DNA of 64,000 nucleotides from Caldisericia bacterium (GTDB taxonomy: Bacteria > Caldisericota > Caldisericia > JAAYUI01): assembly GCA_963674785.1 (NCBI GenBank), contig OY771555.1, positions 2,048,001 to 2,112,000 on the forward strand. Direction: 5' to 3'. Numbering within the stretch: the stretch's first letter is position 1; each line of letters opens with the position of its first letter. Positions 4,494-24,909 of the stretch are shown here, one piece after another. Both the position numbers and the translations under genes were made by a program. Under the pieces are notes generated by a model. That model made no database searches, was not told the origin of the DNA, and saw only the letters and a program-made list of their open reading frames with translations.

Positions 4494-5048
4494 TTGAGCG
4501 AGTTTGACGCTAAAGCAATTTTGCCAAAAATAGCCAAGGGTGATGAATTGGCTTTCAAATCCCTCTATGATCAATTTGGTGGATATGTTTTTAAGGTTGT
4601 AATTCTCTCCCTTAGAGACCATGCAAAAGCTGAGGAACTTGCTCAAACAATATGGCTCAAGATTTGGAGGTTTGCTGGAAAATACGATACAAGCAGACCA
4701 TTTAAACCATGGCTCTCCAGAATAATTTCAAATGAGATTGTCAGTTACTACAGGGTACAAAAACCAAAAAACTCCAGCCTTGAAGATTTGAAAGAGGTAG
4801 GTTTAGAACCTAGCGATGATGTCGACAAACTCAGAGAAAACGAGTTTGAAAGAGACTTATCTGATGAAATAAAAAAAGCATTAGATTTGCTAACTGACAA
4901 ACAACGGCAAGTGATCGTACTAAAATATTACCAGGGCTTCAAGATACGAGAAATCGCGAAAACCTTGAAAATAGGAGAATCAGCCGTTAAGGCCAGGCTG
5001 TACTCGGGTCTTGAAGTTTTGAGTAAAAGCCAAGAAGGCAGGAGATGA
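4494..5048 (+). CDS. ECF (sigma-70 group 4) RNA polymerase sigma factor
   Basis: Region 2 (AEELAQTIWLKIW...FKPWLSRI) and region 4 (LTDKQRQVIVLKYYQGFKIREIA...VKARL). ATGA overlap with the anti-sigma gene. Confidence 0.93.
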   Translation: MSEFDAKAILPKIAKGDELAFKSLYDQFGGYVFKVVILSLRDHAKAEELAQTIWLKIWRFAGKYDTSRPFKPWLSRIISNEIVSYYRVQKPKNSSLEDLKEVGLEPSDDVDKLRENEFERDLSDEIKKALDLLTDKQRQVIVLKYYQGFKIREIAKTLKIGESAVKARLYSGLEVLSKSQEGRR

Positions 5049-7435
5049 AGAACTGTAAGAATATAAGACATTTATTACTCGATTACCTCGAGGGGTCTCT
5101 TTCTGCGGAAAGAGAAGAGATGGTAAGAAACCATCTGTATGATTGCGAAGGTTGCAGAAAATACTTTGAAACACTCTCAATCACTGCAAAAAATACAGAG
5201 GACATATTGGGTAATTATGCAAAAACAGTCGAACCTCCACCATATCTTTGGGGGAATATCCTCAAGGATGTCCAAAAATCAAAGAGAAAAGTTGCTGTTT
5301 CCTGGTGGAAGGTCGCTGTAGCAACATGCGCAGTTGTTGGAGTTTTGATGACCGGAACACTTGCGCCTGTTTTTGGATATGAAGGAAACCTTCTAAATGT
5401 TATTTCAGGGTCAATCATTGAAAATGCATCCGATGACCTAGGCGAGATAATAAGCGACGACCTTCTTGGCTCTCTTAGAAAAGAAGAGATTATCACTCAC
5501 ATTGTTGATAATTCCGACCTAACCGAAGACCTTGTTTGGGAACTTGAAGAAAAGGGATACACAGAAAAAGACATCGTTCAATGTGCTCAAATCGCAGACT
5601 CCGGCAGTTGGCCAATTGAAAAGGTCATCCAAAAGAGGGACCAGGGTTTTGGATTTGGAAGGATTGCAAACTGGGCTGGGGTTTCAGTTTTCTCTATTAA
5701 AAATAGAATCGCGGAGCCAATACACACTCTTAGAAATGATGTCGAAGGAAGAGATGAGTTTGAGGTAAGAACAACAATTGCAGGATTTAACGAAGACCAA
5801 AAACTAATCTCTCCTCATCTGCCAGAGCCAATTGGATTACCACCGGAAATTCTTGATGATAGTGGTGCCATGATCCATCAGGGAGACATCAAAGACTCAT
5901 TTGTTTCGGTTGTTTTCAGATTCGAAAATGGAAAACCTGTTGCAAAACAGATCATTAAACAAAAGGACAGACCAGCAAGACATTTCAATATCAGAGGAAA
6001 GATCGAATCCGTTGAAGACGGGACACTGACACTTTCATCGCCCAATGACGAATCAATTTCAATGTCACTTGTAAACGGAAAAAGCAACATCTTCGGTGAT
6101 ATTGATGTTGGATCAGAGATTGAGGTCTTTGGGTTTAGATCAATCGACGGAAGAATGTTTGTTGATTTTGTCAGACCGGTTCCTGAAAACATGGACTATC
6201 TTCCACCAAAAACTCCATACGAGAGACCACATCATGGGGCAAATCCCCCTCCACCACCTCCTTTCCCCGAGGATATCAACCCAGAATTCGTAAACCCAAC
6301 CCAGACAGAAGACTTAACTGCCCAAGACAAAGAAATATCAGAGAACACTGCGACCACAGAAGAAAAAATAGAAACTATTCCAAATGATAACAATCCACTT
6401 GAAGACGACAAATCAAGCGAAGTAAAGAATACTGATACACAACCCGAAACTACAAAATTCACAGGGGAGATTGTCACACTCTTCTCCGCAAATGCTAATA
6501 TCATAAACACAAGCTCTGGAACATTTGATATCTCGAACACCAAAGTTGGAATTGATTTTAAGGGCAAGGTTTATCCAATTGGCAAGGAAGTCTTAAGTTC
6601 AACCAGAACTATAAAAGAAATCACAATCAACGGTAAGGATGATAACATCGATACTATATTGATAGACGGTAAATACCTATCAAAAACTGAGTGTCTTGTT
6701 ATTGAAAGAAATCCTGAAAAAACAAGCTACAAACTATATTTTGGAGATGGTGAATCAAAGATTATCAAATCAAACTCATCAACCATCTTCCATCAGAACA
6801 CAAAGAAGATAATAAGAAGCCAGAAAATCAATCTCTATAGATTCGAAGATATCCCTGATCTTGCCATCGCCATCGAAGTTATACCAGACTCCCAAAGCAG
6901 AATTAGAATTGAGGGGCTTGTTGAAGGAATTGATGACCAAGGAATTATTGTAAAAAGCACCAAATATGAGATTAATCCTGAAACCACAGGGATATTTAGA
7001 CAAAATGAACCATCAAGGATTAATCCATATGAGATAAATCAAGGTTCAGAGGTTGAATTGGTTTACACAATCATAAACGACGAACCCGTTGCCATCAGAA
7101 TAAATCTCCTTAAAAAAGGTGAGGGTGACCACCAACCCAATCGAAAGTTCTTCAAGGTGATTAGTTTTGATTACAACAAGGAAAATGGCACAATCACTTT
7201 GTCTATATCAAAAGGTAATGGTGCTGGTGGCAATAGCGGTCAATCCTCAAAAAGAATCGTAGTCACAGGACAGACAGAAATACTGCTAAAGCGACCAAAT
7301 GAGCTATTAAGGAGCATCAGCCTCAAGCAGATGGCAGATTTGAAACTAAATGGAATGGATGTATCCTACGAAGAACAGAATGGAAGGATAATAAAAGTAA
7401 CGATTATGGATTATCCTCCGTTATCTCCATTTTGA
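5045..7435 (+). CDS. Transmembrane anti-sigma factor (zf-HC2) with large extracytoplasmic region containing DUF5666-like OB modules
   Basis: N-terminal HLYDCEGC (HxxxCxxC), one TM segment, Pro-rich linker. Modules such as FNIRGKIESVEDGTLTL...IDVGSEIEVFG and IEGLVEGIDDQGIIV...INQGSEVELVY. Confidence 0.85.
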   Translation: MKNCKNIRHLLLDYLEGSLSAEREEMVRNHLYDCEGCRKYFETLSITAKNTEDILGNYAKTVEPPPYLWGNILKDVQKSKRKVAVSWWKVAVATCAVVGVLMTGTLAPVFGYEGNLLNVISGSIIENASDDLGEIISDDLLGSLRKEEIITHIVDNSDLTEDLVWELEEKGYTEKDIVQCAQIADSGSWPIEKVIQKRDQGFGFGRIANWAGVSVFSIKNRIAEPIHTLRNDVEGRDEFEVRTTIAGFNEDQKLISPHLPEPIGLPPEILDDSGAMIHQGDIKDSFVSVVFRFENGKPVAKQIIKQKDRPARHFNIRGKIESVEDGTLTLSSPNDESISMSLVNGKSNIFGDIDVGSEIEVFGFRSIDGRMFVDFVRPVPENMDYLPPKTPYERPHHGANPPPPPPFPEDINPEFVNPTQTEDLTAQDKEISENTATTEEKIETIPNDNNPLEDDKSSEVKNTDTQPETTKFTGEIVTLFSANANIINTSSGTFDISNTKVGIDFKGKVYPIGKEVLSSTRTIKEITINGKDDNIDTILIDGKYLSKTECLVIERNPEKTSYKLYFGDGESKIIKSNSSTIFHQNTKKIIRSQKINLYRFEDIPDLAIAIEVIPDSQSRIRIEGLVEGIDDQGIIVKSTKYEINPETTGIFRQNEPSRINPYEINQGSEVELVYTIINDEPVAIRINLLKKGEGDHQPNRKFFKVISFDYNKENGTITLSISKGNGAGGNSGQSSKRIVVTGQTEILLKRPNELLRSISLKQMADLKLNGMDVSYEEQNGRIIKVTIMDYPPLSPF

Positions 7436-10400
7436 TTGTAACGGTTCTAGTCTGACCATCCCAAGCAACTTCTGCGCCAAGATTTTCTGAAATTACCCTC
7501 AGTGGAACAAGGGTTCTTCCGTTTCTTATGATTGGGGCAGCATCGAGTTCAACCATTTGAGAATTAATGATAGCTGATTTTTTTCCTATCCAGAGATACA
7601 TCAGCTTGTCACCTTTTATGAACGATACGCGTTTTTCATAATCATTCCACTCAACCGTTGCACCTAAAGTCTCTGCAAGGAATCTAAATGGAACCATAGT
7701 CCTTCCATTTGAAATTATTGGTGGACTATCAAGTGTACTTAAAACACCGTTAACAAAAGCATCTTTGCTGTCTATTCTCAAAGTGATCGTTTTATATGTT
7801 GGTATTTTTGTCACTTCAAACTCAAGCATCTTGGTATTATTGGTAACATTCACCTCATCGGAAATAGTGATGTGTACATAGAGCTTGTGCTTTCCAGGAG
7901 CAAGATAGACCGGGGCAGAGAAGTTAATATACTCATATCCAGACGGAGAGATGCTTTGATTCACGATTGTTTTGAAGAGTGATTCCCTTTTCAGCTCATC
8001 CCAATAATAATAAACAGTGTACTCACCGCTTGGGATTCCTGTTGGATTATAAACTGTTGAAAGGATTGTACAGATTGAGTTTTCTTCAGGACTACTTGGC
8101 TGAATCGAAAGATTAATAACAGCTAGATCAATACCCTCACTTGTTGATATTACAAAACCATCAGAACCACTGGACACAAAAGAAACGGTTAACAATCCAT
8201 TTTGATACACCCATTTCGTTGATGTTGTTGATGTTACTGATTTTGGTTTTCCAGAAATAGCAATCACAAAGCTTGTGCAAAGTCCCTTTGGAGCTTGAGA
8301 AATTATTCGGATACCTTTATTCCATTCATCAACCCAGGGGATTGCACATGTCGAGAATATGAGTTTTGGAGTTTTACTCATATCGGGTTTTACATGAATT
8401 GGGTATTGCTTTTTTGGATACTCACCGGGAGTTTTGAAAACTGATTTTGAAAAATCAATTTCCAAAACCGATTCAGTAATCTGTTCATATGAAGATGGAA
8501 GCATTGGAATTTCAAACCCAGCCTCAACCTTAAAGATATCCAACGAAAACATCGGGTCATTTTTGGTGATGAAGATATAACCATCGCCGGCATTCAAGGC
8601 TTTTTCAGTTTCAATATTTATTACCCCAAGATCTTTTGAAATGATTTCTCCAAGGGAAGTATTGTTGTTCCACCACATATAATCTTTAAACCGAGTATCA
8701 TTTTCATAAATGAGTAGATTTCCACCTGATTCAACCCAGTCCTCAAGAAATTCCATATCATCTTGGGAAACAAAAGTTGTACCCATGTCCAAGATTGCAA
8801 GGTTTGAACCACCCAATCCATCGAATCTAGTTGGCAACAAATGAAAGTCTTTTGAGGCAAAACTCATCTGCCAATTCTGATTAACATTGATTTTATCAAT
8901 CCTCTTTGACCAAACAGTACTTTCATTAACAACCTGAACAAATGTGCATGAGGTTTTCTCTAAATCCTTTTCAACAACAAAGGTTCGTTTATCAGAAACA
9001 GACGTTCCTAAAAAATATCCAGCATCTCGAACACCTGAAATATATGCACGAGTTTTTTCTTCATCTATTATCTGAACATATATTGGTTTACCTATAAATA
9101 TGGCATCGAATACCCCCGCCATATACATCTGGTTATCGCCTGCAAAAGATGGTGGGGTGACGATAATCCTATCCATATTTGCAAATCCATCATACGGAAC
9201 AATCCACTCGGAAAACTCCGAGGGCGAAGGAATCGATACAGCAAGCTCCATTTCGAGTCTGTCGGTGTAAGCTCTTGAAATTGCAAGGGTTTTCTTAATC
9301 CTGTCACTTACAAAGTTGTGGAGCGTAAATGCGAGTCCATCATCAGATTCGAGGTTTGTCCAAAGTCTTTTTCCCCAAATCTGATACTCATCGACCAGCT
9401 CAGGATGGTTATCAAAATCCTCCGTAGAGATAGCACAAGTATCGAGAAGAAAACCATCGCAATCCCCAACTGCATCAAATATATCCACAATAACATCTGA
9501 TGGTTTAAAACCAACAAGCACGTCATGGAAAGGAATAACCATAGAGGTTTTTCCAAATCTCTGGCATTCGGTTATAATCTCGCGATTTTCAGAATCTATA
9601 TATTCAGCACCAATCCATGGACTGTCGGTAACTCTGGCACAAAAATTATTTCTCTCAAAACCTTCTAAACCGAGACCGTCATAATATCCATCTGAGTCCG
9701 TATCAGCATACTTTGTCGAGAGCATCAAAAAAGACTCAACATTGTCATTAAGTCCGTCATTGTCGGTATCAAGAGGTCTGTCATCGACTCCATCGTTCAG
9801 ATCATCATTATCGGTTCTAAAAAGATACGGATCAGTTCCCGTTGCCAACTCAAGACAGGTTGGAATCCCATCCTCATCGTTATCATCATCAAAGGTAAAA
9901 CACAACAATTCACCTTCACCTGTAATGTTCAAAAAACCTGTGGAGTCTGAAATATCAAAAAAAGTAATCCCATCAACTAGCTTTTTTTCAAGTCCATACA
10001 CTTCTAAAGATTCGGGATTTGTAGAAATACAACAAAAGTAACCATGGTCTCCAGGCACAAAAACACGTACAGGTTCATCTGAAAGCACTACTCCATACTC
10101 ACCTGTTTCACCTTCAACAAAGGCGCTCCCCAAATCTGATTTTGTATCAACTGGAGCAAAATCATAAAACATCGTGAAACTTCGGAGTTTTGTTTCTTCT
10201 GTTGTCGAAACCGAAAAAACATTATCACCTTCAACGATTTTTTTCGATATCCAATACTTCCCATCATATTCATTGAGGGCTAGTTCAGTATCATCAATCT
10301 TTGCCGTTATTGGCTTATCAACCTCAACAAAAAAGGACACCCAGGTATCAGTCGCATGCGACACACTATAAGAAATCTCTGTGCTTGCAGGGATAAGTCT

Positions 10401-10961
10401 TCCACCACCTGATGGAAGTGTTGATTCACCAGGCTTTACCAGAAAGCTACTTTCAGTCTCGGAACCTGGGAAGATTTCATGCATTCGATAGATATTAAGT
10501 CTCCACAGAGTAAAGGGTTCTGATGCAGATTCTCTTCTCTTAATTCTTACCCTCATGGGATTTTCAGGTTGGATATCAATTGCAATCTGTCTTTTCATTC
10601 GACCAGATAAATTGCCATCAAGCTGACCTGAAGAATATACAGATGTGAATTCAGCACCACCCATTGAAACATCAATTATGTATGGACCAGCTGCATCAAG
10701 CTCAAGTACAACCGGCATATTTTCAAATATTTGAAATTCGTACTCAACGAAATCATTCGATCGTCTTGTTCCATCTTTTACCCAGGTATCAGAGGCCGCT
10801 GAAAGATATAATCTTTCAAGGTTTGTATCAGGAACTATAACCATCCCGGTTGAAATACTTGGAACTATTTTTTTGACAGAACTATCTTTTGAATAAATAA
10901 AACTTGTCGGGACAACAAAAATAAACGCAAGCAATAAAATAAATACTTTTTTATTCATCAT
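7404..10961 (-). CDS. Large secreted protein with DxDxDG Ca-binding repeats, CARDB-like domain and C-terminal copper-amine-oxidase-like stalk domain
   Basis: Likely start MMNKKVFILLLAF (signal peptide) overlapping the pgk stop. DNDEDGIP/DTDNDGLND/DTDSDGYYDG repeats; DLAVINLSIQPSSP...DEVNVTNN; LDSPPIISNGRTMVPFRFLAETLGATVEW and GRTLVPLRVISENLGAEVAW. Confidence 0.85.
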   Translation of the reverse strand: MMNKKVFILLLAFIFVVPTSFIYSKDSSVKKIVPSISTGMVIVPDTNLERLYLSAASDTWVKDGTRRSNDFVEYEFQIFENMPVVLELDAAGPYIIDVSMGGAEFTSVYSSGQLDGNLSGRMKRQIAIDIQPENPMRVRIKRRESASEPFTLWRLNIYRMHEIFPGSETESSFLVKPGESTLPSGGGRLIPASTEISYSVSHATDTWVSFFVEVDKPITAKIDDTELALNEYDGKYWISKKIVEGDNVFSVSTTEETKLRSFTMFYDFAPVDTKSDLGSAFVEGETGEYGVVLSDEPVRVFVPGDHGYFCCISTNPESLEVYGLEKKLVDGITFFDISDSTGFLNITGEGELLCFTFDDDNDEDGIPTCLELATGTDPYLFRTDNDDLNDGVDDRPLDTDNDGLNDNVESFLMLSTKYADTDSDGYYDGLGLEGFERNNFCARVTDSPWIGAEYIDSENREIITECQRFGKTSMVIPFHDVLVGFKPSDVIVDIFDAVGDCDGFLLDTCAISTEDFDNHPELVDEYQIWGKRLWTNLESDDGLAFTLHNFVSDRIKKTLAISRAYTDRLEMELAVSIPSPSEFSEWIVPYDGFANMDRIIVTPPSFAGDNQMYMAGVFDAIFIGKPIYVQIIDEEKTRAYISGVRDAGYFLGTSVSDKRTFVVEKDLEKTSCTFVQVVNESTVWSKRIDKINVNQNWQMSFASKDFHLLPTRFDGLGGSNLAILDMGTTFVSQDDMEFLEDWVESGGNLLIYENDTRFKDYMWWNNNTSLGEIISKDLGVINIETEKALNAGDGYIFITKNDPMFSLDIFKVEAGFEIPMLPSSYEQITESVLEIDFSKSVFKTPGEYPKKQYPIHVKPDMSKTPKLIFSTCAIPWVDEWNKGIRIISQAPKGLCTSFVIAISGKPKSVTSTTSTKWVYQNGLLTVSFVSSGSDGFVISTSEGIDLAVINLSIQPSSPEENSICTILSTVYNPTGIPSGEYTVYYYWDELKRESLFKTIVNQSISPSGYEYINFSAPVYLAPGKHKLYVHITISDEVNVTNNTKMLEFEVTKIPTYKTITLRIDSKDAFVNGVLSTLDSPPIISNGRTMVPFRFLAETLGATVEWNDYEKRVSFIKGDKLMYLWIGKKSAIINSQMVELDAAPIIRNGRTLVPLRVISENLGAEVAWDGQTRTVTIKMEITEDNP

Positions 10962-12156
10962 CCAACACGGCAATCCCTGGTAGAGTTTTCCCCTCAAGAA
11001 ATGCAAGTGAAGCACCTCCTCCTGTTGAAACATGTGTAAATTCGGATTTCAAGCCAAATTTGGACGCAGCCGATGCTGAGTCTCCTCCACCAATTATGCT
11101 CACCTTCACATTCTTGCTTACCGCATCCATAACAGTTTTAGTACCAACTGCAAATTCGTCTCGTTCAAAAACACCAAGCGGCCCATTCCAAAGCACTGTC
11201 TCACAAGCCGAAAGTGCATCTGAAAAACGTTTTCTAGTTATCGGCCCAATATCCATCCCCTGATAACCATCAGGAATGTCAACAATTTCAACCAAATCCC
11301 TCATGTAACCCTCAACAACTCTAATATCGGAGGGATTTTTAAACTCATCTGCACACACGTAGTCAAATGGAATTAAAACATTTTTTCCTCGGAGTCTTGC
11401 ATCTTCAAGGAATTCCCGACAGCTTTCAAGGTATTCGGTTTGAACCAATGAGTCACCAATCTTGTGACCAAGTGCATGGTGGAACGTGTAAGACATCCCT
11501 CCACCAATCGCGATAACATCGGCGCATTCGACAAGATTATAAATTGCATTCATCTTATCAGAGACCTTCGCGCCACCGAAAACAATTCCAAAAGGTCTCT
11601 CTGGGTTTTTTAAAATTGATCCAAGATGTCTTAATTCAGATAAAAGAAGAAATCCAGCAACAGCAGGTTTCAGTATTGCAGGAACTCCAAAATTGCTTGC
11701 GTGTGCTCGATGTGCTGTTCCAAAGGCATCAGAAACATATATCTCAGCAAGCTCTGAAATCTGATATGCAAACCAATAATCATTCTCGGTTTCTTCTTTA
11801 TGAAAACGAAGGTTTTCAAGCATCATCACTTGTCCTGGTTTCAGGTTTTCTGATGCGGTCTTCGCATCCTGTCCCACACAATCATCCACCATCATGACAT
11901 CTCGATTAAGAGTTTTTGCTAAATAATCAGCAACCGGTTTCAGACTCAGACTCTTATCAAACTTCCCTTTTGGTCTTCCAAGATGAGAACAGATGATTAA
12001 CTTTGCTTCCCTTTCTATAAGATTTCTAATTGTTGGGAGTGTGAGCTGGATCCTGGTATCATCAAGTATCTTGCCATCTTCAAGCGGAAAGTTAAAATCA
12101 GCTCTAAGCAGAACCCTTTTTTCTCTTACATCAATTTGTTCAATAGATTTTTTCAT
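10951..12156 (-). CDS. pgk: Phosphoglycerate kinase
   Basis: RADFNFP, SHLGRPKG, LENLRF, DAFGTAHRAHAS, GGAKVSDK, WNGPLGVFE, HVSTGGGASL. Confidence 0.98.
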   Translation of the reverse strand: MKKSIEQIDVREKRVLLRADFNFPLEDGKILDDTRIQLTLPTIRNLIEREAKLIICSHLGRPKGKFDKSLSLKPVADYLAKTLNRDVMMVDDCVGQDAKTASENLKPGQVMMLENLRFHKEETENDYWFAYQISELAEIYVSDAFGTAHRAHASNFGVPAILKPAVAGFLLLSELRHLGSILKNPERPFGIVFGGAKVSDKMNAIYNLVECADVIAIGGGMSYTFHHALGHKIGDSLVQTEYLESCREFLEDARLRGKNVLIPFDYVCADEFKNPSDIRVVEGYMRDLVEIVDIPDGYQGMDIGPITRKRFSDALSACETVLWNGPLGVFERDEFAVGTKTVMDAVSKNVKVSIIGGGDSASAASKFGLKSEFTHVSTGGGASLAFLEGKTLPGIAVLDDE

Positions 12157-13301: not shown

Positions 13302-16300
13302 TTATTCAAAGCTTGAAAATGAGTAATCCTCGAGACCAAAATTGAGAGCAGGGATTGGTGTACCAATTTGTGCAGTTACCACAGTTGCATGAATATATTT
13401 TTCTTTAGTATTGGTATATCCAACAACATCGTAGTTTTGATTCACAACAAAATCTTCGCAATTGTACTTCGATGTAAAAAACAGCTTATATGTTTTTCTG
13501 TAATAGGCTACTTCAAGATATGGAACTCCACCTATAACCAGGCACTTCTTATCGGTCACCTTTACTGTAAACTCATTTTCAGCAGGACACCTTGCTTTTG
13601 TAAGCTTGCTCGGGGTAATTGTTGGCGCAACACCAAGAATTCCCTTTGGGACACTCACAGTTCCTGTTGCCGTAATACACTCACCAATTTTGTAGTTGCT
13701 TATACTAAATGGTTTAACAACCTCAATATTGTATGTTGTTGTTTTTTCCAACCCTGTGATTATTCCAGTTTTTGCATTGACACTCGTAATAAATAGAGTA
13801 TGGGTTTCTTCCTCTTTTGGGCAATCTACTTTTTCAATTGTATCTGCTTCAAGATATCCTGACTGAATTCGACCGTAGAACCTTATACAATCACCTTTTT
13901 CTAAAGATGAGCAATTAAAAGAACTTGGATAGAACAAAACATATTCTGAGCTTTCATAATTAACCTTCATAAACCAAAGGTCACAATCAGTGGATGAAAC
14001 AACAGCGTCATATGGACCAGAGCTTACGCATTTTCTTAGTGAGACTCTCTTTGCAATAATATAAGACTCACCTGATGTACCAATTTCTGATCTTTGAGAG
14101 GATTTCATTACTCCTTCAACTGTGATACAGGCTCCGACCTTGAAGGTTTCACATTTCAGATTTTCTGGAAGATACACCTTATAAAAAAGCATACCATCTC
14201 TTGCCAAATAATATGGTTCCTTTGTGTCCCTACAATATGTTCCGAAGATAACCATATCCCAAGTTTCGACATTTTCTGGGCATGCAATTTTTTCAATTTT
14301 CAAAGCGGTGATAATTTGATATTTTTCATCGTAAACACCAGTGATTTCCACACAATCACCAACAACAAAACTTTCACATTTGATGTCTTCTGGAACACCA
14401 ACCATAAATGTTGTCCCATCAATTTCGCAATATAAAAGGTCTTCTACGCAATAGGTTCTTGAAACAACCCCTTCCCAGGTCTGACCTTCCAGTTCTGGTT
14501 CAGGCTCAGGTTCGGGTTCTTCCTCCACAATACATAATTCAATCGGAAGATAATCACCCCAAACAACAAGTGGATACCACTCCATATCAACCATTGTATC
14601 AGTTATTGTTATTGGCTGAGTGCACACCCTTACACATCTGCCAAGTTCAAAATTGATGTATTTTGGAATCCTGAAATAGTCAGGATAATAGAAGTCTTCA
14701 CCTCTATCCTTGCTGTGTTCAAGTTTCATTCGACCAGAATCGTGATCAATCTCTTCCACAATCCCCTTGTAGACCAATCCACCACATTCTCCGATGCACT
14801 CGCTTTGACTGATGAGTTTCATCGAAGTCACAAACAGTATGTTATCAAATGGATTAACTTCGCCGCAAAGTTCAACACAGATTGGATATATCAGTTTTGG
14901 GATTCTATGTAAATATCCTTCAAAAACAGAGTGGCTTTCAAACAAGATTTTCCTTATCAATCCATCTTGCAATATGTATCCAACCTTTTCATCAATGTTA
15001 AGGTGAATAAGTGAGGCTTTTACAGACTCAACCTTGCATGCTTCGCACTCTTCTTCAGAGAGAATGGTCAACTTATCGCAAATGAAAAGCTGTCTCTTTT
15101 TTACGTATGTTCCAATAATCTTGATGCAGTCTCCGACGTTGAGTTTTTCTGATACATCATCTGGGAAATGAATCTCATATTTCCCACCTCTATAATCTAC
15201 AACTCCTGTTTGGTCATCATTAATTTCATAAGTAACACAAACCCAGATGTCGGTTTTGTTTTCACACTCTTCATCAGGTAAAACCCTTATCCAATTTGCA
15301 TTAATAACGATTGGAGTGCTGGATGTTACACCTGTGTTTTCCTGGGAGAATTTTCCACAAATCTCAATACATGTGCCAGATTTATATGCAATTTCGTTTT
15401 CTACACCTAAAACTTCATACCTATTTCCATCGACCCAAACCATGAGTTCACCAAAATCTTCAGCAACAACAGCATGAATCAGGTCATCTTCACAGGTTTT
15501 TTCGGTTTCACACGGAACAACCTCAAACCAACTTGAAGAGAACATTTTTTCATCATCAAGGAGCTCTGTAATACAGATTCTCAAACATAATTCAGGTTTA
15601 AGATCGGTTATCTCGAGGTTTGTTTTAACATCAATCACTTTCCCAGAAACATCGATTACAAGCTTCATCTGCTCTGGGTCAAGATCAACAATCTCTCCCT
15701 CTACCACCTGTCCTTCACATTGATTGGAACAGAGCATTCTTGGGAGCTTTCTTATCCAGGTCGTTACAAAGATTTGGTTTTCAAGTTGCCACTGCCCACA
15801 GGCGACGACACAATCACCAATCTTAAATCTCTTGCAAAGGTTTGGAGCAACTTTCAAAGCCCAGAGAGAAACTCCTTTTTGAAGAGTTATGATTCCTCTC
15901 TCAGCATCAACATCATAAATACTTCCTCTCCACAAATTGCCATCTGAACAATAATAACCACACATATCCTCAGGCATGAATGAAAAGTCTTCGATCTTTA
16001 GATACCCTGATTTCGGGTCAAATCTTACACACAGCTCAACACAATCATCCTCATCAAAGGGAATCCAACCGGGGACTGAAGGTAATTCATAATACATCGG
16101 CTCACTATAACCATAGAGCATTATCAAAGCACCATTCAGGTCATCTTTGCTTTCAACCGCAATGATCTTGCCGAAGAACCTTCTGCCCGAAACACATTTG
16201 TCGTCGTCACAGATTTTTTCTTGTATTTCTCGATAATCCAGAATCACATCTGACCCTTCATCATCAGTGTCAATGCAAAGTCTCAAGCACATTCCTGCTG

Positions 16301-19300
16301 AGACAGATTCAAAAATATCTGGTTTTACAGATATCTGTTTAATCTCTCCATCCAATCTGTATATCAGTGTCATGTTTTCTGGATTCTTCTTGATGATTTT
16401 GACATCAACCATTCTGCCTCCGCAGGTGAATCCAACAGTGCAGTTTATCAACATGAAATTCTGTCCATGATATCTACCATTTTCATCAGTATACACACAG
16501 ATTTCATAACAATTTCCAGCTTTCATCTCACAGAAATCAGTTCGATTAAAATGTATCTTAAGAGGCATTGGAGTTCGAGCTTCAACAGTCAATACCTCCA
16601 TCCCCTCAATATAACCCTCATCACAATAAACATTTTGGATATTGATTTTTATATTTCTATCACATTCAGGTTCAACCTCAGGACACTTCTCGTCTTCAAG
16701 CTTTTCCATCGACAACACAACTGGTGGAATACCCGGAATAACCTTCAAGCAAGCTGAAACACAGTCTCCAATCTTAAACCCATTACAAACAGAAACATCC
16801 TTTGAAATATATGTTTCTTCTACGCCATCGACATCGATTATTATTTTGTCATCTTCTCTACAACCAAGATAAACGATTCTTCCGATAACATCTTCATCAC
16901 ATGTTTCTTCTGCTGGAGGCTCTTCGATACCACAGAGCTCAGGGTCAATTTTTTCCCACCAGATAAGCTCAAAATCTGTAAAACCAACAATCCTCCCACA
17001 AACCTTTGCACATGAATCATTTTCCAATTCGGAACACTTTATGATTGATTCATCAATTGGAAGCTCCATCTCCATGCCCTTAATCATCGAGTGTCCGTCA
17101 ATAATCTTGATTTTCATTGAGTTATTATCGCAATCCACTTCTTTGATGTGGACGATTAACTCGACACCATCACATCCCTGCTCTTCTGTAATCCCACACT
17201 CATCTGGTTCAAGCTCAGCAAACCAGGATAATGATGCTGACCCTGAAAGCTCAAACTTGATACAGGCTTCGATGCACATGTTTTCCTCAAGCTTTTTTGC
17301 CTGTGTTTCAGAGATTGAGAAACTGTATTTTCTTTCGCTTCCATAGAGTTGAATTGTTGCATCAAAACTTGTGACTTTTTTCAATACCCCAAAAACCTGA
17401 AGTCCATCGCAGGAGATTGGGCAATCGATCTTTTTTGCCGATGTGACTGAAAGATTATTTGCTTCGGTTACCACACAAAGTTCATAACATTGACCAATCT
17501 TGAGGTTACAAAGGTTTCTCTGCCCAATCTCAATTTCATATGATTTGCCTAGTCCCAAATCAAAAATAAGCATCTTTGAACAATCAGAAAGGATGCGTTC
17601 AATTCTGGCTTCAATTATCCTTCCATCACAAATCCTGCTACAATCAGATTTCTTAACGCTCAATGCCACCCATTTGTAACTAACATTGGTCGCAATCTCT
17701 GAGTTTATAACCTTGTATGCACAAACTTCAGCACAATTCATTTCATTTAGGCTTTTATCGATCGGAAGTCCTGAAATATCAAATTCGATATAAGTATCAC
17801 CATGCGAGAGTTTCAATATCCCAGCAACCTCAGAGAGAGATAAAACCTTCCCGACAAATTTTTCTCCATTACAGGAATCATCGCTACATGGTTTTGCTAC
17901 AACAATTTTTGCAGAAATCTTATCGGTCGAAATCCTATCTCCGCAAATCCTAACGCACCATGTATCGCTCATCTCCATACAATTGATATTTTTAGGCAGA
18001 GTAACAGTCACAAGATCACCACCATCAAGTTCAACCTTTAAACTGTTACCTATACAATCAATTTCGATAATCTTTCCTGAAAACCAATCTCCATCACATT
18101 CAAACTCATCAGTTTCGCCAGGGCAATCCATAGTTTCGATGTTTTCAGGAACAATGTACAAACCATTATTTGATTCAATTTGTTTACCAGAAACCCTAAA
18201 ACAATCACCTATTTGAAGTCTTCCACAGAACGAAACCAGATTTTTATTGTCGGTAGGCAAAAGTACCATCTGGGAGTCTCCATCAAAATCAGTGAAATGT
18301 ATTTCACCTTTAGCACAATCTAACTCAGTTACTTTTCCTTCCCAGTTTTTGATACCATCATAAGGACATTCAATTATTTCAGCAGTTGAAACATAAAGAT
18401 AACCCGGATAGTCCTCATGATCATTTCTTCCGGTAACCTTGAGACAATCACCAACAAATGGCTTAAAACCATCAGCAAGACTATTCATATTTGCAAGAAG
18501 GTATGACTCCCCGGTAAACGCCTTTAAGTGACCAAGTCCAGTTGAGTCAGAATATCTAACAAGAAGCCCCTCAACGGTTTCTTCACATCTATCAGGAAAC
18601 GATAAAACTGCCTGTTTTGTTGCTGCATACCACTTGACTTCACCCTCCCCAAATGATTCAACTGGGAATCTGAGCGGGATATGTGTTCGACCATTTTTTA
18701 TAAAAGGTACAACCCTTGGATTATTTGGGTCAATTGGAGACTCAACTCCATTTACCTTGGCAACCGATTTGCCAATCCACATTTCGATGGTTTTACCTTT
18801 ATAGACAACGGTTACTTTGCGTTCTATTCCATCCCACAACACCTCAGCTCCAACAGCTTCAGCAACATATCTGATAAGAAGGAAAGCACGGTTATTGTCA
18901 ATGATACACGGTGTTGACATCATTTTTTTGACACCATTTACCATGTATTCTGCAGAATCAATTGTAAATGTGAGAACCAGTTTACATGGTTCAATTAGGG
19001 TTGGTAAATCCTCTAAAACAGAGACACATACCTCGTTTGATTTTAAAAATGAAGAAGCATCATCATCTAGGGCAACGGCATAATAACAATAGTTTCTACC
19101 ATTTTCGACGTTCTTGTCAAAATAAACATTACCCAGAATGCCAAAATCTGTCAGTGGCATCAAATACTGTCCACCTGATGTTTCTCCCCTATACAGATAA
19201 TAACCCTGCTTTGCGTTGGGAACCTCATCCCACCAGAGTTTTACAACACCATCTCCTGCTGTTGCGTAAAGATTAAAACCTTCATCAGCAAAAACCATAT

Positions 19301-19379
19301 CTGTATTTCCAATTGAAAAAGCCGAAAACGACGAGACAATAAGAATAATAGAAATGACCATTGATAATAGTTTCTTCAT
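13302..19379 (-). CDS. Giant secreted protein: signal peptide, FN3, copper-amine-oxidase-like stalk domain, ~22 Cys-rich OB-fold-like repeats
   Basis: ATG 19379 with GGAGG RBS; MKKLLSMVISIILIVSS signal. FN3 pattern (VKLWWD...GYYLYRG...YFDKNVENGRNYCYYAVA). Stalk motifs IRYVAEAVGAEVLWDG and GRTHIPLRF, then the repeat array. Confidence 0.9.
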   Translation of the reverse strand: MKKLLSMVISIILIVSSFSAFSIGNTDMVFADEGFNLYATAGDGVVKLWWDEVPNAKQGYYLYRGETSGGQYLMPLTDFGILGNVYFDKNVENGRNYCYYAVALDDDASSFLKSNEVCVSVLEDLPTLIEPCKLVLTFTIDSAEYMVNGVKKMMSTPCIIDNNRAFLLIRYVAEAVGAEVLWDGIERKVTVVYKGKTIEMWIGKSVAKVNGVESPIDPNNPRVVPFIKNGRTHIPLRFPVESFGEGEVKWYAATKQAVLSFPDRCEETVEGLLVRYSDSTGLGHLKAFTGESYLLANMNSLADGFKPFVGDCLKVTGRNDHEDYPGYLYVSTAEIIECPYDGIKNWEGKVTELDCAKGEIHFTDFDGDSQMVLLPTDNKNLVSFCGRLQIGDCFRVSGKQIESNNGLYIVPENIETMDCPGETDEFECDGDWFSGKIIEIDCIGNSLKVELDGGDLVTVTLPKNINCMEMSDTWCVRICGDRISTDKISAKIVVAKPCSDDSCNGEKFVGKVLSLSEVAGILKLSHGDTYIEFDISGLPIDKSLNEMNCAEVCAYKVINSEIATNVSYKWVALSVKKSDCSRICDGRIIEARIERILSDCSKMLIFDLGLGKSYEIEIGQRNLCNLKIGQCYELCVVTEANNLSVTSAKKIDCPISCDGLQVFGVLKKVTSFDATIQLYGSERKYSFSISETQAKKLEENMCIEACIKFELSGSASLSWFAELEPDECGITEEQGCDGVELIVHIKEVDCDNNSMKIKIIDGHSMIKGMEMELPIDESIIKCSELENDSCAKVCGRIVGFTDFELIWWEKIDPELCGIEEPPAEETCDEDVIGRIVYLGCREDDKIIIDVDGVEETYISKDVSVCNGFKIGDCVSACLKVIPGIPPVVLSMEKLEDEKCPEVEPECDRNIKINIQNVYCDEGYIEGMEVLTVEARTPMPLKIHFNRTDFCEMKAGNCYEICVYTDENGRYHGQNFMLINCTVGFTCGGRMVDVKIIKKNPENMTLIYRLDGEIKQISVKPDIFESVSAGMCLRLCIDTDDEGSDVILDYREIQEKICDDDKCVSGRRFFGKIIAVESKDDLNGALIMLYGYSEPMYYELPSVPGWIPFDEDDCVELCVRFDPKSGYLKIEDFSFMPEDMCGYYCSDGNLWRGSIYDVDAERGIITLQKGVSLWALKVAPNLCKRFKIGDCVVACGQWQLENQIFVTTWIRKLPRMLCSNQCEGQVVEGEIVDLDPEQMKLVIDVSGKVIDVKTNLEITDLKPELCLRICITELLDDEKMFSSSWFEVVPCETEKTCEDDLIHAVVAEDFGELMVWVDGNRYEVLGVENEIAYKSGTCIEICGKFSQENTGVTSSTPIVINANWIRVLPDEECENKTDIWVCVTYEINDDQTGVVDYRGGKYEIHFPDDVSEKLNVGDCIKIIGTYVKKRQLFICDKLTILSEEECEACKVESVKASLIHLNIDEKVGYILQDGLIRKILFESHSVFEGYLHRIPKLIYPICVELCGEVNPFDNILFVTSMKLISQSECIGECGGLVYKGIVEEIDHDSGRMKLEHSKDRGEDFYYPDYFRIPKYINFELGRCVRVCTQPITITDTMVDMEWYPLVVWGDYLPIELCIVEEEPEPEPEPELEGQTWEGVVSRTYCVEDLLYCEIDGTTFMVGVPEDIKCESFVVGDCVEITGVYDEKYQIITALKIEKIACPENVETWDMVIFGTYCRDTKEPYYLARDGMLFYKVYLPENLKCETFKVGACITVEGVMKSSQRSEIGTSGESYIIAKRVSLRKCVSSGPYDAVVSSTDCDLWFMKVNYESSEYVLFYPSSFNCSSLEKGDCIRFYGRIQSGYLEADTIEKVDCPKEEETHTLFITSVNAKTGIITGLEKTTTYNIEVVKPFSISNYKIGECITATGTVSVPKGILGVAPTITPSKLTKARCPAENEFTVKVTDKKCLVIGGVPYLEVAYYRKTYKLFFTSKYNCEDFVVNQNYDVVGYTNTKEKYIHATVVTAQIGTPIPALNFGLEDYSFSSFE
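13363..18587 (-). repeat. About 22 tandem, highly diverged 70-90 aa protein repeats (approx. C-x-G..G-x-I-x-x-I-D-C...L-P...C..L-K-x-G-D-C-x-x-x-C/G...I-x-C)
   Basis: Manual alignment of the translation. Periodicity is clear at the protein level and not obvious in the DNA. Confidence 0.85.
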
Positions 19380-19415
19380 TTTTTGTTCCTCCAAAGCATC
19401 TAGTACTACACCCCG

Positions 19416-19442
19416 ATTATAACACAAATTTTCTGTTGTCTA
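19416..19442 (-). promoter_or_regulatory. Putative sigma-A promoter with extended -10 (TGTTATAAT) for the Cys-rich repeat gene
   Basis: Minus strand reads TAGACA-15 nt-TATAAT with a TG extension, just downstream of the terminator of the previous gene. Confidence 0.55.
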
Positions 19443-19468
19443 CTTGACAAATAATTCATATATCCCAC

Positions 19469-19501
19469 AAAAAAAGAGCCCAGAAAAACTGGGCTCTTTT
19501 T
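19469..19501 (-). terminator. Intrinsic terminator after the AIM24-family gene (symmetric, possibly bidirectional)
   Basis: AAAAAGAGCCCAG-AAAAA-CTGGGCTCTTTTT perfect inverted repeat with A/T tails. Confidence 0.88.
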
Positions 19502-22999: not shown

Positions 23000-23085
23000 T
23001 TAAAAGTTCTACTTAAGTATTGTTACAGTTTTTTACAATTTGCAAAATCCAAAACATTTAATTATTATAATTTTTGGAGGTTGTA

Positions 23086-24909
23086 ATGAATAAATCAACT
23101 GAAGTTATCAAATCACCTGAAGTAAAGGCTTCTGATCTAACCATCAAGGGAGTGTTTCAAAGCTTCTATATTATTCCAGAATACCAACGAGAATACGTTT
23201 GGTGTACAGAAAATGTTGAGTTATTGCTATCTGATACTTTTGATACTTTGATTGAATCGAGCGGTGACGAGAAAGATGAGTATTTCATTGGAAGCATCGT
23301 TGTTGTAAAGGATAAGAAGTCAAATTTTCTTGTGATCGATGGGCAGCAGAGGCTAATCACAATTTTTCTTATTTTTTGCGCAATCAGAGATTATTTCAAA
23401 AAACTAGGGAAGGAAAGACCAATAAGCATGATTGAAAAGCTACTTTTCGAAGACCGTCCTGATGATACTGGTTTGGAGAAGATTAATACATTTAGAATCA
23501 AAGTAAATTTTGATGAAACTCAAAAAGTTCTTGAAGCAATAGGCAAAGGAGAAAGTCTAAAAGAATCTATAAAGAAGATTGAACCATTGTCTGAATCAGA
23601 AGAAAAGATCATCAATGCTTATGAGACTGCTTTAGATTTCATAAATGAAAAAAATGATATCAATCTTATTGGTAGATATTGGAAGTATTTAAGCGAGAAA
23701 GTAAAACTGATAAGGATTAATACGGACAATACACAAAATGCAGTAAAAGTTTTTGCCACAATTAATGACCGAGGTCTCGCCCTAGGTCCGGTTAACCTAA
23801 TAAGAAATCTAATTTTTAGCAATGCACAAGATGGTGATTTTGAAAAAATTAAAGATATATGGAAGAAGTTTTCTGAGATTTTATGGAAATCAAAAGAAGC
23901 TCCATTGAGATTTATGAGGTATTACGTATTATCAAACTACAATATCACTCCAAAGGATATCCCAAGACGAGATTCAGTTTACAGCTGGTTTAATAATCAT
24001 TCTGAGCTAATAGGATTAAAAAACAACCCAATAAGTTTTGCTGAAAAGTTATTAGAGCAAGCTCATTTTTGGGATCTCTATGTAAACAGTAAATCTAATG
24101 ATGGGTCCGAAAATGAATTTCTAGAAAATGTTAAAATTATGGGGAACAATACATTCAGACATCATTTTATCCTACTATTAGCTGCAAGAAAATTAGAAAA
24201 AAATCTGTTTGAAAAACTAACACAATCAATCGAAAATCTTATCTTTGTCTACGAAATAACTGGAATCCGATCAAATACAAGAGAGAAAGAGTTTATTTCA
24301 ATTGGAAACAGTTTAAGAAAAGTCACAAATAGCGAGTCTTTTTTTAAATTTTTAGATGAAGGTATTGCAAGGAGAATTAATGAGAATAAACTAAGTTTTG
24401 AAAATAAGTTCAAAGAATTACGCTATATGGAAACTCCTATAAAACAAGCATACAAAATGAAGTATATATTGTCCAAACTCTCTCAGCATCTTGATGATTG
24501 TGCAGGAAAAGGAAAAAGCAAAATCTCAGACTATTTTTCCAAATACTCGATAGAACATATTCTCCCTTCTTCAGTTGCAAAAGGACAAAACCCACAATGG
24601 AAGTTTGACAAAAAAGAGCAAATAAATGATTATGTCAACCATATAGGGAATCTAACTCTACTTGAAACAAATCTCAATTCCTCCGCTAGCGATAAACTCT
24701 TTGAAAAAAAACAGACTGAATATTACAGTGAATCGGCTTCCTTTTTAACAAGACTACTGGGGGGAAAGAAAACAATTGGTGAAAACACCAAGTGGAATAA
24801 AACATTTAAAAGGTATTATTTTGATATCTCTAATTGGGATTCTGTAACGATCAAAAAAAGAGCTGAAAAAATATCAAGATTAGCTTCAAAAGTTTGGTGT
24901 GAAATCTAA
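23086..24909 (+). CDS. DUF262 + DUF1524 (HNH) GmrSD/SspE-like modification-dependent nuclease
   Basis: IPEYQREYVW, YFIGSIV, IDGQQRL, FATINDRGLAL (DUF262); SIEHILP...IGNLTLL...LNS (DUF1524). ATG after GGAGG. Confidence 0.9.
   Translation: MNKSTEVIKSPEVKASDLTIKGVFQSFYIIPEYQREYVWCTENVELLLSDTFDTLIESSGDEKDEYFIGSIVVVKDKKSNFLVIDGQQRLITIFLIFCAIRDYFKKLGKERPISMIEKLLFEDRPDDTGLEKINTFRIKVNFDETQKVLEAIGKGESLKESIKKIEPLSESEEKIINAYETALDFINEKNDINLIGRYWKYLSEKVKLIRINTDNTQNAVKVFATINDRGLALGPVNLIRNLIFSNAQDGDFEKIKDIWKKFSEILWKSKEAPLRFMRYYVLSNYNITPKDIPRRDSVYSWFNNHSELIGLKNNPISFAEKLLEQAHFWDLYVNSKSNDGSENEFLENVKIMGNNTFRHHFILLLAARKLEKNLFEKLTQSIENLIFVYEITGIRSNTREKEFISIGNSLRKVTNSESFFKFLDEGIARRINENKLSFENKFKELRYMETPIKQAYKMKYILSKLSQHLDDCAGKGKSKISDYFSKYSIEHILPSSVAKGQNPQWKFDKKEQINDYVNHIGNLTLLETNLNSSASDKLFEKKQTEYYSESASFLTRLLGGKKTIGENTKWNKTFKRYYFDISNWDSVTIKKRAEKISRLASKVWCEI

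Follow-up and report, generated by a model that had tools for sequence, protein, structure and literature searches.

The gene described here lies on the minus strand of a 64,000-nucleotide stretch of a Caldisericia bacterium genome (contig OY771555.1; the whole stretch is referred to below as the window) and encodes a predicted exported protein of 2025 residues, most of which is a chain of 22 small and mutually divergent modules with the oligonucleotide/oligosaccharide-binding (OB) fold. The modules carry up to three pairs of cysteines, and the two partners of each pair are, as a rule, present or absent together. The interpretation that we favour, and hold to be reasonably probable from what the sequence contains, is that the protein would form an envelope-attached, semi-rigid fibre or adhesin of 22 disulfide-stapled OB barrels.

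Architecture of the protein

A single frame is open over positions 13302..19427 of the window; the TTG upstream is not the start, and the product begins at the ATG at 19379 (MKKLLSMV...; MKKLLSMVISIILIVSSFSAFS...), giving 2025 residues. The parts of the gene, in window coordinates, are as follows.

13302..19379 (-): whole gene; 2025-residue predicted secreted protein with 99 cysteines, isoelectric point (pI) 4.56, mature mass ~224 kDa
19287..19379 (-): signal peptide, about residues 1-31; MKK, hydrophobic core, putative cleavage at VFA/DEG, no lipobox cysteine
18996..19283 (-): N-terminal domain, about residues 33-128, containing C98 and C118; first labelled 'FN3'
18612..18941 (-): Cu_amine_oxidN1 'stalk' domain (Pfam PF07833), residues 147-256; presumed envelope or cell-wall attachment unit
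18366..18602 (-): module 1, residues 260-338; pair C and the conserved orphan C265
18123..18365 (-): module 2, residues 339-419; pairs B and C; matches Pfam tRNA_anti-codon (OB)
14532..18122 (-): modules 3-17, residues 420-1616; pair-A block (A absent from 15), C in all, B in 3, 5 and 7-9
13371..14531 (-): modules 18-22, residues 1617-2003; distal block without pair A, B in 18-20 and 22, C in 18-21
13305..13370 (-): C-terminal tail, 22 residues; no LPXTG and no hydrophobic anchor

The 22 contiguous modules were defined with a profile hidden Markov model (HMM) iterated to convergence on the protein itself. Cut from terminal cysteine to terminal cysteine they measure 69-88 residues, the last being 72 residues plus the 22-residue tail, in good agreement with the original prediction, made by inspection of this sequence, of about 22 repeats of 70-90 residues. 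Identity to module 8 within the protein is only 5-27%. Cysteine makes up 99 of the 2025 residues (4.9%, against 1.26% in a crude translation of the whole proteome), and 94 of these lie from C312 onward, which is the number first estimated for the repeats; C265 lies in module 1 and the other four are N-terminal of it. The mature protein is strongly acidic, with a pI of 4.56 and a net charge of -134 for about 224 kDa; the net charge is negative in seventeen of the 22 modules and slightly positive only in modules 12, 19, 21 and 22.

Both the signal peptide and the stalk domain named in the original prediction are recovered, the latter as an unambiguous Pfam match to PF07833 (102.1 bits against a cut-off of 24.2, E 2.1e-29, residues 147-256). 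The FN3 label given to residues ~33-128 is not: no Pfam family matches residues 30-135 at E <= 10. A PDB sequence search with residues 30-264 returned nothing except two chance thioredoxin matches (E about 0.8), NCBIfam places no family on the protein, and Pfam finds nothing of weight on the whole protein beyond Cu_amine_oxidN1 and one tRNA_anti-codon match. Each of 41 genomes of the class has large open reading frames (ORFs) that match residues 1-270, and the N-terminal unit, a presumed small β domain followed by Cu_amine_oxidN1, appears to be a leader common to dozens of large surface proteins there. PF07833 is reported to be frequent in cell-wall hydrolases in one passage of PMC4137172, and the unit would probably hold the protein at the cell wall. 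The last 120 residues (C-terminus ...NFGLEDYSFSSFE) contain no sortase signal of LPXTG, hydrophobic segment and basic tail. CxxCH haem motifs number zero in the 2025 residues, so that the protein does not qualify as a multihaem cytochrome.

Structure prediction

Module 8 was folded with AlphaFold2 from an alignment of 146 modules taken from the query protein and six orthologues (described below). The model, with a predicted local distance difference test score (pLDDT) of 91.1 and a predicted TM-score (pTM) of 0.77, has strands at 13-23, 29-34 and 37-43, a helix at 46-49 and strands at 57-63 and 71-77, which is the OB order β1-β2-β3-helix-β4-β5. When the PDB was searched with this model using Foldseek, every match listed was an OB domain (RuvA domain I, RPA, cold-shock, RecO, the LysRS anticodon-binding domain and IF1), with TM-scores relative to the query (TMq) of 0.45-0.64, E values of 3e-3 or weaker and identities of 7-19%. 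By sequence, Pfam tRNA_anti-codon (PF01336) exceeds its cut-off of 27 bits on one of the 22 modules, module 2 (31.5 bits, E 1.7e-7, residues 360-415). Predicted topology, structural neighbours and this Pfam match agree with the OB-like character first proposed for the repeats.

Other searches gave less. The module profile found nothing meaningful among PDB sequences, the best matches being designed 'Cake' propellers (E 0.0015) and cold-shock proteins (E ~0.3), and a protein atlas search scored 0.76-0.81, under its 0.9 reliability line, so that the unnamed clusters, DUF1344, DUF5666 and DUF3221 that it returned are leads only.

Modules 3-5 (residues 420-653) were folded together from an alignment of 28 in-register three-module segments, which replaced a staggered alignment of overlapping windows (1132 columns). 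The model (pLDDT 90.0, pTM 0.67) shows the OB unit of module 8 three times, and its Foldseek matches are tandem OB proteins: bS1, Unr CSD456, SP_0946, LEF-3 and HIN domains, at E 1e-5 to 1e-3. Because the global TMq of these matches is only 0.2-0.3, the geometry of the predicted array is not shared by any solved structure that it matched.

Co-variation of the cysteines

Six columns of the module alignment hold most of the cysteines. A1 precedes β1, B1 lies at the end of β1, B2 just before the L-K-x-G-D turn, C1 is the cysteine of the G-D-C motif, A2 follows C1 by four residues, so that the two are i and i+4 on β4, and C2 is the last residue of the module. Pair A is occupied in modules 3-14, 16 and 17, pair B in modules 2, 3, 5, 7-9, 18-20 and 22, and pair C in modules 1-21, module 22 being without both partners. 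Module 15 has a private pair (C1381 and C1434), and single orphans occur in module 12 (C1182, at B2) and module 18 (C1651). All of this matches, module by module, the occupancy list of the original prediction. C265 of module 1 is an A1-position cysteine without A2, a state (100011) that is the same in eight of the eight proteins examined.

The partners are strongly associated. In the query protein, A1 and A2 are both present in 14 modules and both absent from 7, with one case of A1 only and none of A2 only (Fisher exact p = 5e-5), and B1 and B2 are both present in 10 and both absent from 11, with no case of B1 only and one of B2 only (p = 3e-5). Counted over 102 modules of four proteins, pair A is complete in 67 and absent from 30, the exceptions being four cases of A1 only, all of them module 1, and one of A2 only; pair B is complete in 61 and absent from 39, with one exception on each side; pair C is complete in 100 and absent from two, with no exceptions. 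Pairs A and B are independent of each other in the same set (A2 against B1, p = 0.39). It is important to note that the Fisher values overstate the case for pairing, because related proteins are not independent. In a wider, non-redundant set of 171 modules from eight proteins, 151 contain complete pairs only, 8 are of the module-1 type and 12 contain one orphan, some of these twelve being alignment slips (for example, module 22 of P0003, in which B2 is shifted by two columns).

The comparison of orthologous modules carries more weight. Both partners of a pair flip together at least 10 times, against about two half-changes: pair B is gained in L012.m04, L017.m03, L013.m11, L012.m16, L012.m20, L014.m11 and L012.m32, L011.m13 has lost pair A and L014.m12 has gained it, and pair C is present in L012.m33 and absent from query module 22. 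Where cysteines are replaced, A2 becomes T, K, E or S, B1 becomes S, E, P or A, and B2 becomes I or L; none becomes His or Asp. Our reading of these results is that the pairs are likely to be three independent intramodule disulfides. Of the stapling in the original prediction, the part that concerns residues stands, with partners that co-vary and are gained and lost in concert, and the part that concerns bonds is supported indirectly.

Redox setting and points against the favoured reading

A number of observations weigh against a disulfide-stapled, wall-attached rod, and several of them concern the host. The window's genome, a single contig that is 92% complete by marker genes, has no match to VKOR (PF07884), DsbB (PF02600), Thioredoxin_4 (PF13462) or DSBA (PF01323), and PF07884, PF02600 and PF01323 exceed their cut-offs in none of 11 genomes of the family. 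Nor was a terminal oxidase found, whether COX1 (haem-copper) or cytochrome bd, which is consistent with a strict anaerobe. The sole extracytoplasmic thiol-redox system that we see is of the CcdA-plus-thioredoxin type, and such systems are usually reductive, as is CcdA with ResA or StoA in Bacillus. Among predicted exported proteins the number of cysteines is even in 196 and odd in 173 (p = 0.25), and among cytoplasmic ones even in 434 and odd in 445; the test is a crude one (53% against 49% even), made on 1771 crude ORF calls with a home-made signal-peptide rule that flagged 414 as exported, probably too many. Further points concern the protein itself. The disulfide geometry is deduced from co-variation and topology only, at least three cysteines (C265, C1182 and C1651) are unpaired in the A/B/C scheme, the three-module pTM of 0.67 hints at rigidity only indirectly, and wall binding by PF07833 depends on that single passage of PMC4137172.

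Two candidates for the missing enzymes were examined and rejected: a VKOR-like match in G003 (21.8 bits) is a 449-residue polytopic membrane protein with two distant cysteines and no CxxC, and a weak DsbB-like match in G005 is a 63-residue frame with an internal stop. The comment in the original prediction that so many disulfides would be unexpected in a probable anaerobe is thus borne out by the genome, in which COX1, cytochrome bd, VKOR, DsbB and DsbA were all sought and not found.

The extracytoplasmic thioredoxin-fold proteins are nonetheless numerous. CcdA (DsbD_TM, 76 bits) at G000:C1:374623-377625 (-), G000:C1 being the window's own genome, adjoins two small anchored thioredoxin-like proteins with the motifs CIPC and CVAC, and the genome has in all some nine CxxC proteins of the thioredoxin fold that are equipped with a signal peptide, a lipobox or a membrane anchor (CPPC twice, CEPC, CNPC and CEPC in one protein, CHWC, CVAC, CIPC, CVWC and CLPC). 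The seven beyond the CcdA pair include giants of 734, 765 and 2034 residues. Thermophily is not an obvious reason for the staples, because the optimal growth temperature estimated from the IVYWREL fraction, with a formula reportedly that of Zeldovich et al. 2007, is ~37 C.

If the pairs are indeed oxidised, there would be up to 48 disulfides in each molecule and several hundred over the paralogues. We give a modest chance, at most, to the idea that these imply an undescribed anaerobic route of oxidative folding, for which one candidate would be a set of exported lipoproteins of the thioredoxin fold (CPPC or CEPC motifs) that sulfur compounds re-oxidise or that act with CcdA, or else that the pairs are reversible redox or sulfane-sulfur carriers, making the array a redox-active surface polymer and not an inert rod.

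An alternative that draws on these redox results is that the paired cysteines stay reduced in a sulfidic, anoxic habitat and bind metals (Fe, Zn, Ni, Cu), metal sulfides or sulfane sulfur in persulfide or polysulfide bridges, so that the protein would be a metal- or sulfur-binding or redox-active polymer. The missing Dsb and VKOR enzymes and oxidases, the lack of a proteome-wide bias to even cysteine numbers in our crude test and the CcdA and exported or anchored CxxC proteins all fit such a role, and a very acidic protein is friendly to cations. The pairs, however, vary independently and not as sets of three or four ligands, and two-cysteine sites alone are weak metal sites. C1 and A2 cannot share one metal, because residues i and i+4 of one β strand are about 13 A apart by standard geometry; in addition, the replacements of the cysteines were never noted to be His or Asp, and the protein has no CxxCH motif. 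We therefore regard ligand-binding thiols as unlikely, and prefer intramodule disulfides.

Orthologues, paralogues and more distant relatives

A word-indexed protein search returned three full-length homologues at 30-40% identity; a search of genome contigs with the single protein found no related locus, and orthologues were found by searching whole genomes. They occupy the same place. The order array, gap, pgk and a gene for a 1209-residue Cu_amine_oxidN1 protein is kept in G001, G002, G007 and G004, and in G005 up to the end of the contig, making five of the five relatives examined, and the array locus sits upstream of gap-pgk in three genera, with ~6 to 35 modules. The orthologous arrays contain 21 modules in G001 (2010 residues), 35 in G002 (3003 residues), at least 25 in G003 (2367 residues), 25 in G007, 26 in G005, at least 12 in G008 and G004 (1335 residues) and at least 5 in G006 (736 residues), and gaps in the tiling show that the HMM missed a few modules. 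This is the variation in repeat number among relatives that the original prediction, with its chain of dissimilar beads, had led us to look for.

In relatives of the same genus, modules follow the order seen in the query, and per-module identity to G003 is 32-75%; the best conserved are 1, 4, 18 and 22, at 70-75% (70% for 18 and 73% for 22). Since order is collinear and modules are individually conserved between species, every module has a conserved identity of its own. Differences in length among the orthologues come from insertion or duplication of particular modules, and copies resembling module 8 recur (L011.m09, L013.m09, L013.m19, L012.m07 and L012.m10).

The window's genome also encodes paralogous arrays, of 2258 residues (17 modules, 2.7% Cys), 1558 residues (14, 1.9%), 1331 residues (11, 6.9%), 1209 residues (7, 5.8%) and 1161 residues (6, 5.3%). 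These use other subsets of the cysteines, some modules having pair B only and others an extra CxC in β1. The 1558-residue array (G000:C1:387648-392324, (-)) consists of pair-B-only modules, several of them very similar to their neighbours (for example, residues 377-448 and 541-613), which suggests recent duplication, unlike the array of the window. Separately, a predicted exported protein of ~1170 residues at G000:C1:270761-274273 (-) has 72 cysteines (6.3%) and is unmatched by the OB-module HMM, and is a different Cys-rich surface protein.

At E <= 1e-6 the module profile matches all 10 genomes of f1, the family to which the window belongs, each with 23-55 modules matched, and 6 of 9 genomes of family f3, with 1-2 matches; it matches none of the genomes of f2 (0/14), f4 (0/14), f5 (0/11) or f6 (0/2). 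Matches over a whole array are restricted to f1 (10/10 genomes, three genera), and by this measure the paralogous family is confined mainly to one Caldisericia family, the arrays marking essentially one clade. Against 1.84 billion representative proteins the profile retrieves 795 at E <= 1e-3, 95 at <= 1e-10 and 26 at <= 1e-30. The strong matches are Cys-rich (5-8% Cys), and the three that were scanned (P0013, P0016 and P0040) have Cu_amine_oxidN1 near the N-terminus. The weaker ones are mostly secreted proteins almost free of cysteine, and three of the three scanned (P0029, P0032 and P0036, with 0-2 cysteines) are Pfam DUF5666 arrays, P0032 combining a module-profile E of 2.5e-27 with 16 DUF5666 stretches by Pfam. 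The orthologue P0003 has a precomputed match to DUF5666 (PF18914; cut-off 27 bits), a family that is unlisted for the query protein at E <= 1. Because the module profile retrieves these arrays, we take the module to be a Cys-stapled offshoot of the DUF5666-type OB module, and the resemblance to DUF5666 suspected from the motif alone turns out to reflect a remote relationship.

Names of the three homologues and ten clusters that we looked up are, where present, generic domain names (Cu_amine_oxidN1 for P0003 and P0016), and most are nameless; the Cu_amine_oxidN1 name applies to some 110 residues out of 2025 and leaves the OB array undescribed. Titles and abstracts of papers mentioning DUF5666 give no sign of a functional study, and the literature on the Caldisericota surface, DUF5666, amine-oxidase N domains and extracellular OB arrays, to the extent covered here, describes neither the architecture nor Cys-rich OB arrays. 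The original remark that it was unrecognised agrees with these literature and name searches.

Proposed working and its alternatives

In the reading that we favour, the protein would be exported by Sec through its signal peptide and attached near the wall by the shared N-terminal unit. The remaining 1760 residues would form 22 tandem OB barrels with up to three independent intramodule disulfides each, of which the near-universal C would link the start of β4 to the C-terminal tail, A the N-terminal tail to β4, and B the end of β1 to the helix or loop between β3 and β4. In 14 of 14 junctions, C2 of one module and A1 of the following one are separated by a free tether of 2-10 residues; if A and C fasten both of a module's tails to the barrel, only those 2-10 residues would be left free between neighbours. 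Because the tethers are so short, and with the pTM of the three-module model, the array would be expected to behave as a semi-rigid rod that resists protease and force; if each OB barrel takes up about 2.5-3 nm, its length would be roughly 55-70 nm. As the modules keep individual, conserved identities, the most likely role would be that of a structural spacer or adhesive fibril in which specific modules, probably conserved distal ones, bind a partner. Block 18-22, which lacks pair A and includes the slightly basic modules 19, 21 and 22 and the highly conserved modules 18 and 22, is the candidate binding tip.

The variation in module number at one locus, from about 6 to 35, the repeated duplication of module-8-like copies in relatives and the presence of several paralogous arrays in one genome might instead be signs of a diversifying binder repertoire or variable surface antigen, its modules shuffled, duplicated and replaced fast in response to phage or changing substrates. 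A binder repertoire was among the original proposals. We find, however, no repeats or cassettes at the DNA level in the gene, its modules are 5-27% identical to each other, and orthologous modules keep their order at 32-75% identity between species of a genus; no diversity-generating element was noticed, in work that included no search aimed at one. A fast-switching array is disfavoured because DNA repeats are missing and orthology is collinear, making us rather sceptical of this explanation.

An extracellular nucleic-acid binder, such as a biofilm scaffold holding extracellular DNA in the manner of classical OB folds and as originally suggested, is very improbable: module 2 does match tRNA_anti-codon and the structural neighbours are, among the matches listed, all nucleic-acid-binding OB proteins, but identities of 7-19% limit that likeness to the fold, the closest relatives by sequence are secreted DUF5666 arrays and not nucleic-acid binders, and generic binding of nucleic acid is disfavoured because the protein is strongly acidic (pI 4.56, net charge -134, 17/22 modules acidic).

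Flanking signals and neighbouring genes

Three short elements upstream of the coding sequence were read from the DNA.

19388..19392 (-): Shine-Dalgarno GGAGG, 8 nt 5' of the ATG at 19379
19416..19424 (-): promoter-like extended -10, TGtTATAAT, without a good -35
19468..19497 (-): hairpin and T-run (AGAGCCCAG / CTGGGCTCT, then a T-rich tail), predicted to close the preceding AIM24 gene

Because the hairpin and T-run would end the upstream AIM24 gene, the arrangement suggests that the array gene has a transcription start of its own. A consensus scan for promoters and terminators listed more sites in shuffled than in the real sequence and none of use at either end of the gene; TGtTATAAT, having no good -35, is unlisted.

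Within the gene we found no tandem or dispersed DNA repeats beyond short chance matches and one short GTTCAG repeat, and for this reason both an assembly artefact and recent amplification are excluded. The exception, the gene's only DNA repeat, is a GTTCAG x4.7 tandem at window positions 14492-14519, which encodes a PEPEPEPE linker before module 18; PEPEPE runs also occur in orthologues at the junction before module 18.

The 1209-residue protein of the locus is encoded at window 7404-11033 (-) and has a C-terminal Cu_amine_oxidN1 (E 4e-52, in two stretches) and no other Pfam match. Because its homologue follows pgk in four of the five relatives examined, the four genes (array, gap, pgk and this one) make up a conserved block. 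Window 5045-7435 (+) encodes a 796-residue protein that has a zf-HC2 anti-sigma zinc finger at its N-terminus and, over residues 623-676, matches DUF5666 at 21.5 bits, below the cut-off of 27. Such a protein could be an anti-sigma factor that senses through an OB-like domain outside the cytoplasm. The gene at window 23074-24909 (+), adjoining the housekeeping genes coaX and dus, is for a restriction endonuclease of the GmrSD type (GmrSD_N, GmrSD_C).

Significance and comparison with known systems

Giant repetitive surface proteins of bacteria are known; here one is made of DUF5666-type OB modules. New is the combinatorial code of three cysteine pairs, in an anaerobic lineage in which no known disulfide machinery was found. 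The DUF5666-type module gains a structural context, as a building block of giant surface fibres, a role that is usually that of Ig-like domains. With zero to three complete pairs in 151 of 171 modules, the arrays are a natural combinatorial experiment on the stapling of one fold, and orthologous modules that differ by exactly one pair should be useful for protein engineering and for the study of disulfide gain and loss. The arrays also sharpen the question of whether cysteines exported by strict anaerobes that have neither Dsb nor VKOR become oxidised, and by what means, for which they would supply a plentiful substrate that is easy to assay. They are, in addition, a first entry point to the cell surface of the Caldisericota, about which little is known.

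The nearest known relatives, the DUF5666 (PF18914) arrays, likewise combine a signal peptide with small β-barrels placed head to tail and a β4 motif of the G-D-x-V-x-V-x-G type. Those examined are nearly free of cysteine, whereas the query protein has up to three cysteine pairs per module, an N-terminal Cu_amine_oxidN1 domain and 22 distinct modules.

Serial OB barrels are also found in bS1, in the cold-shock domain arrays of Drosophila Unr and in SP_0946 of S. pneumoniae, which are the best three-module Foldseek matches (E 1e-5 to 2e-5). Tandem OB, S1 and cold-shock proteins of this intracellular kind reside in the cytoplasm, are basic, bind RNA and have no disulfides. In contrast, the query protein is by prediction exported and Cys-stapled, and it is acidic; the geometry between its domains also differs from that of bS1, Unr and SP_0946 (global TMq 0.21-0.30).

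In its proposed working the protein resembles the stalk adhesins of Gram-positive bacteria (isopeptide CnaB and pilin proteins, SasG G5-E, Rib), in which an anchor close to the wall carries a long rod of small β domains, each covalently cross-linked inside, and the rod projects a binding tip. By analogy, the Caldisericia array would work in the same way, its staples giving mechanical and proteolytic stability. The two differ, however, in fold, which is OB and not Ig-like; in the cross-links, which would be formed by cysteine pairs and not by Lys-Asn or Lys-Asp isopeptides; in the anchor, which would be N-terminal and non-covalent, with no C-terminal LPXTG; and in the host, which is an anaerobic member of the Caldisericia and not a Bacillota pathogen.

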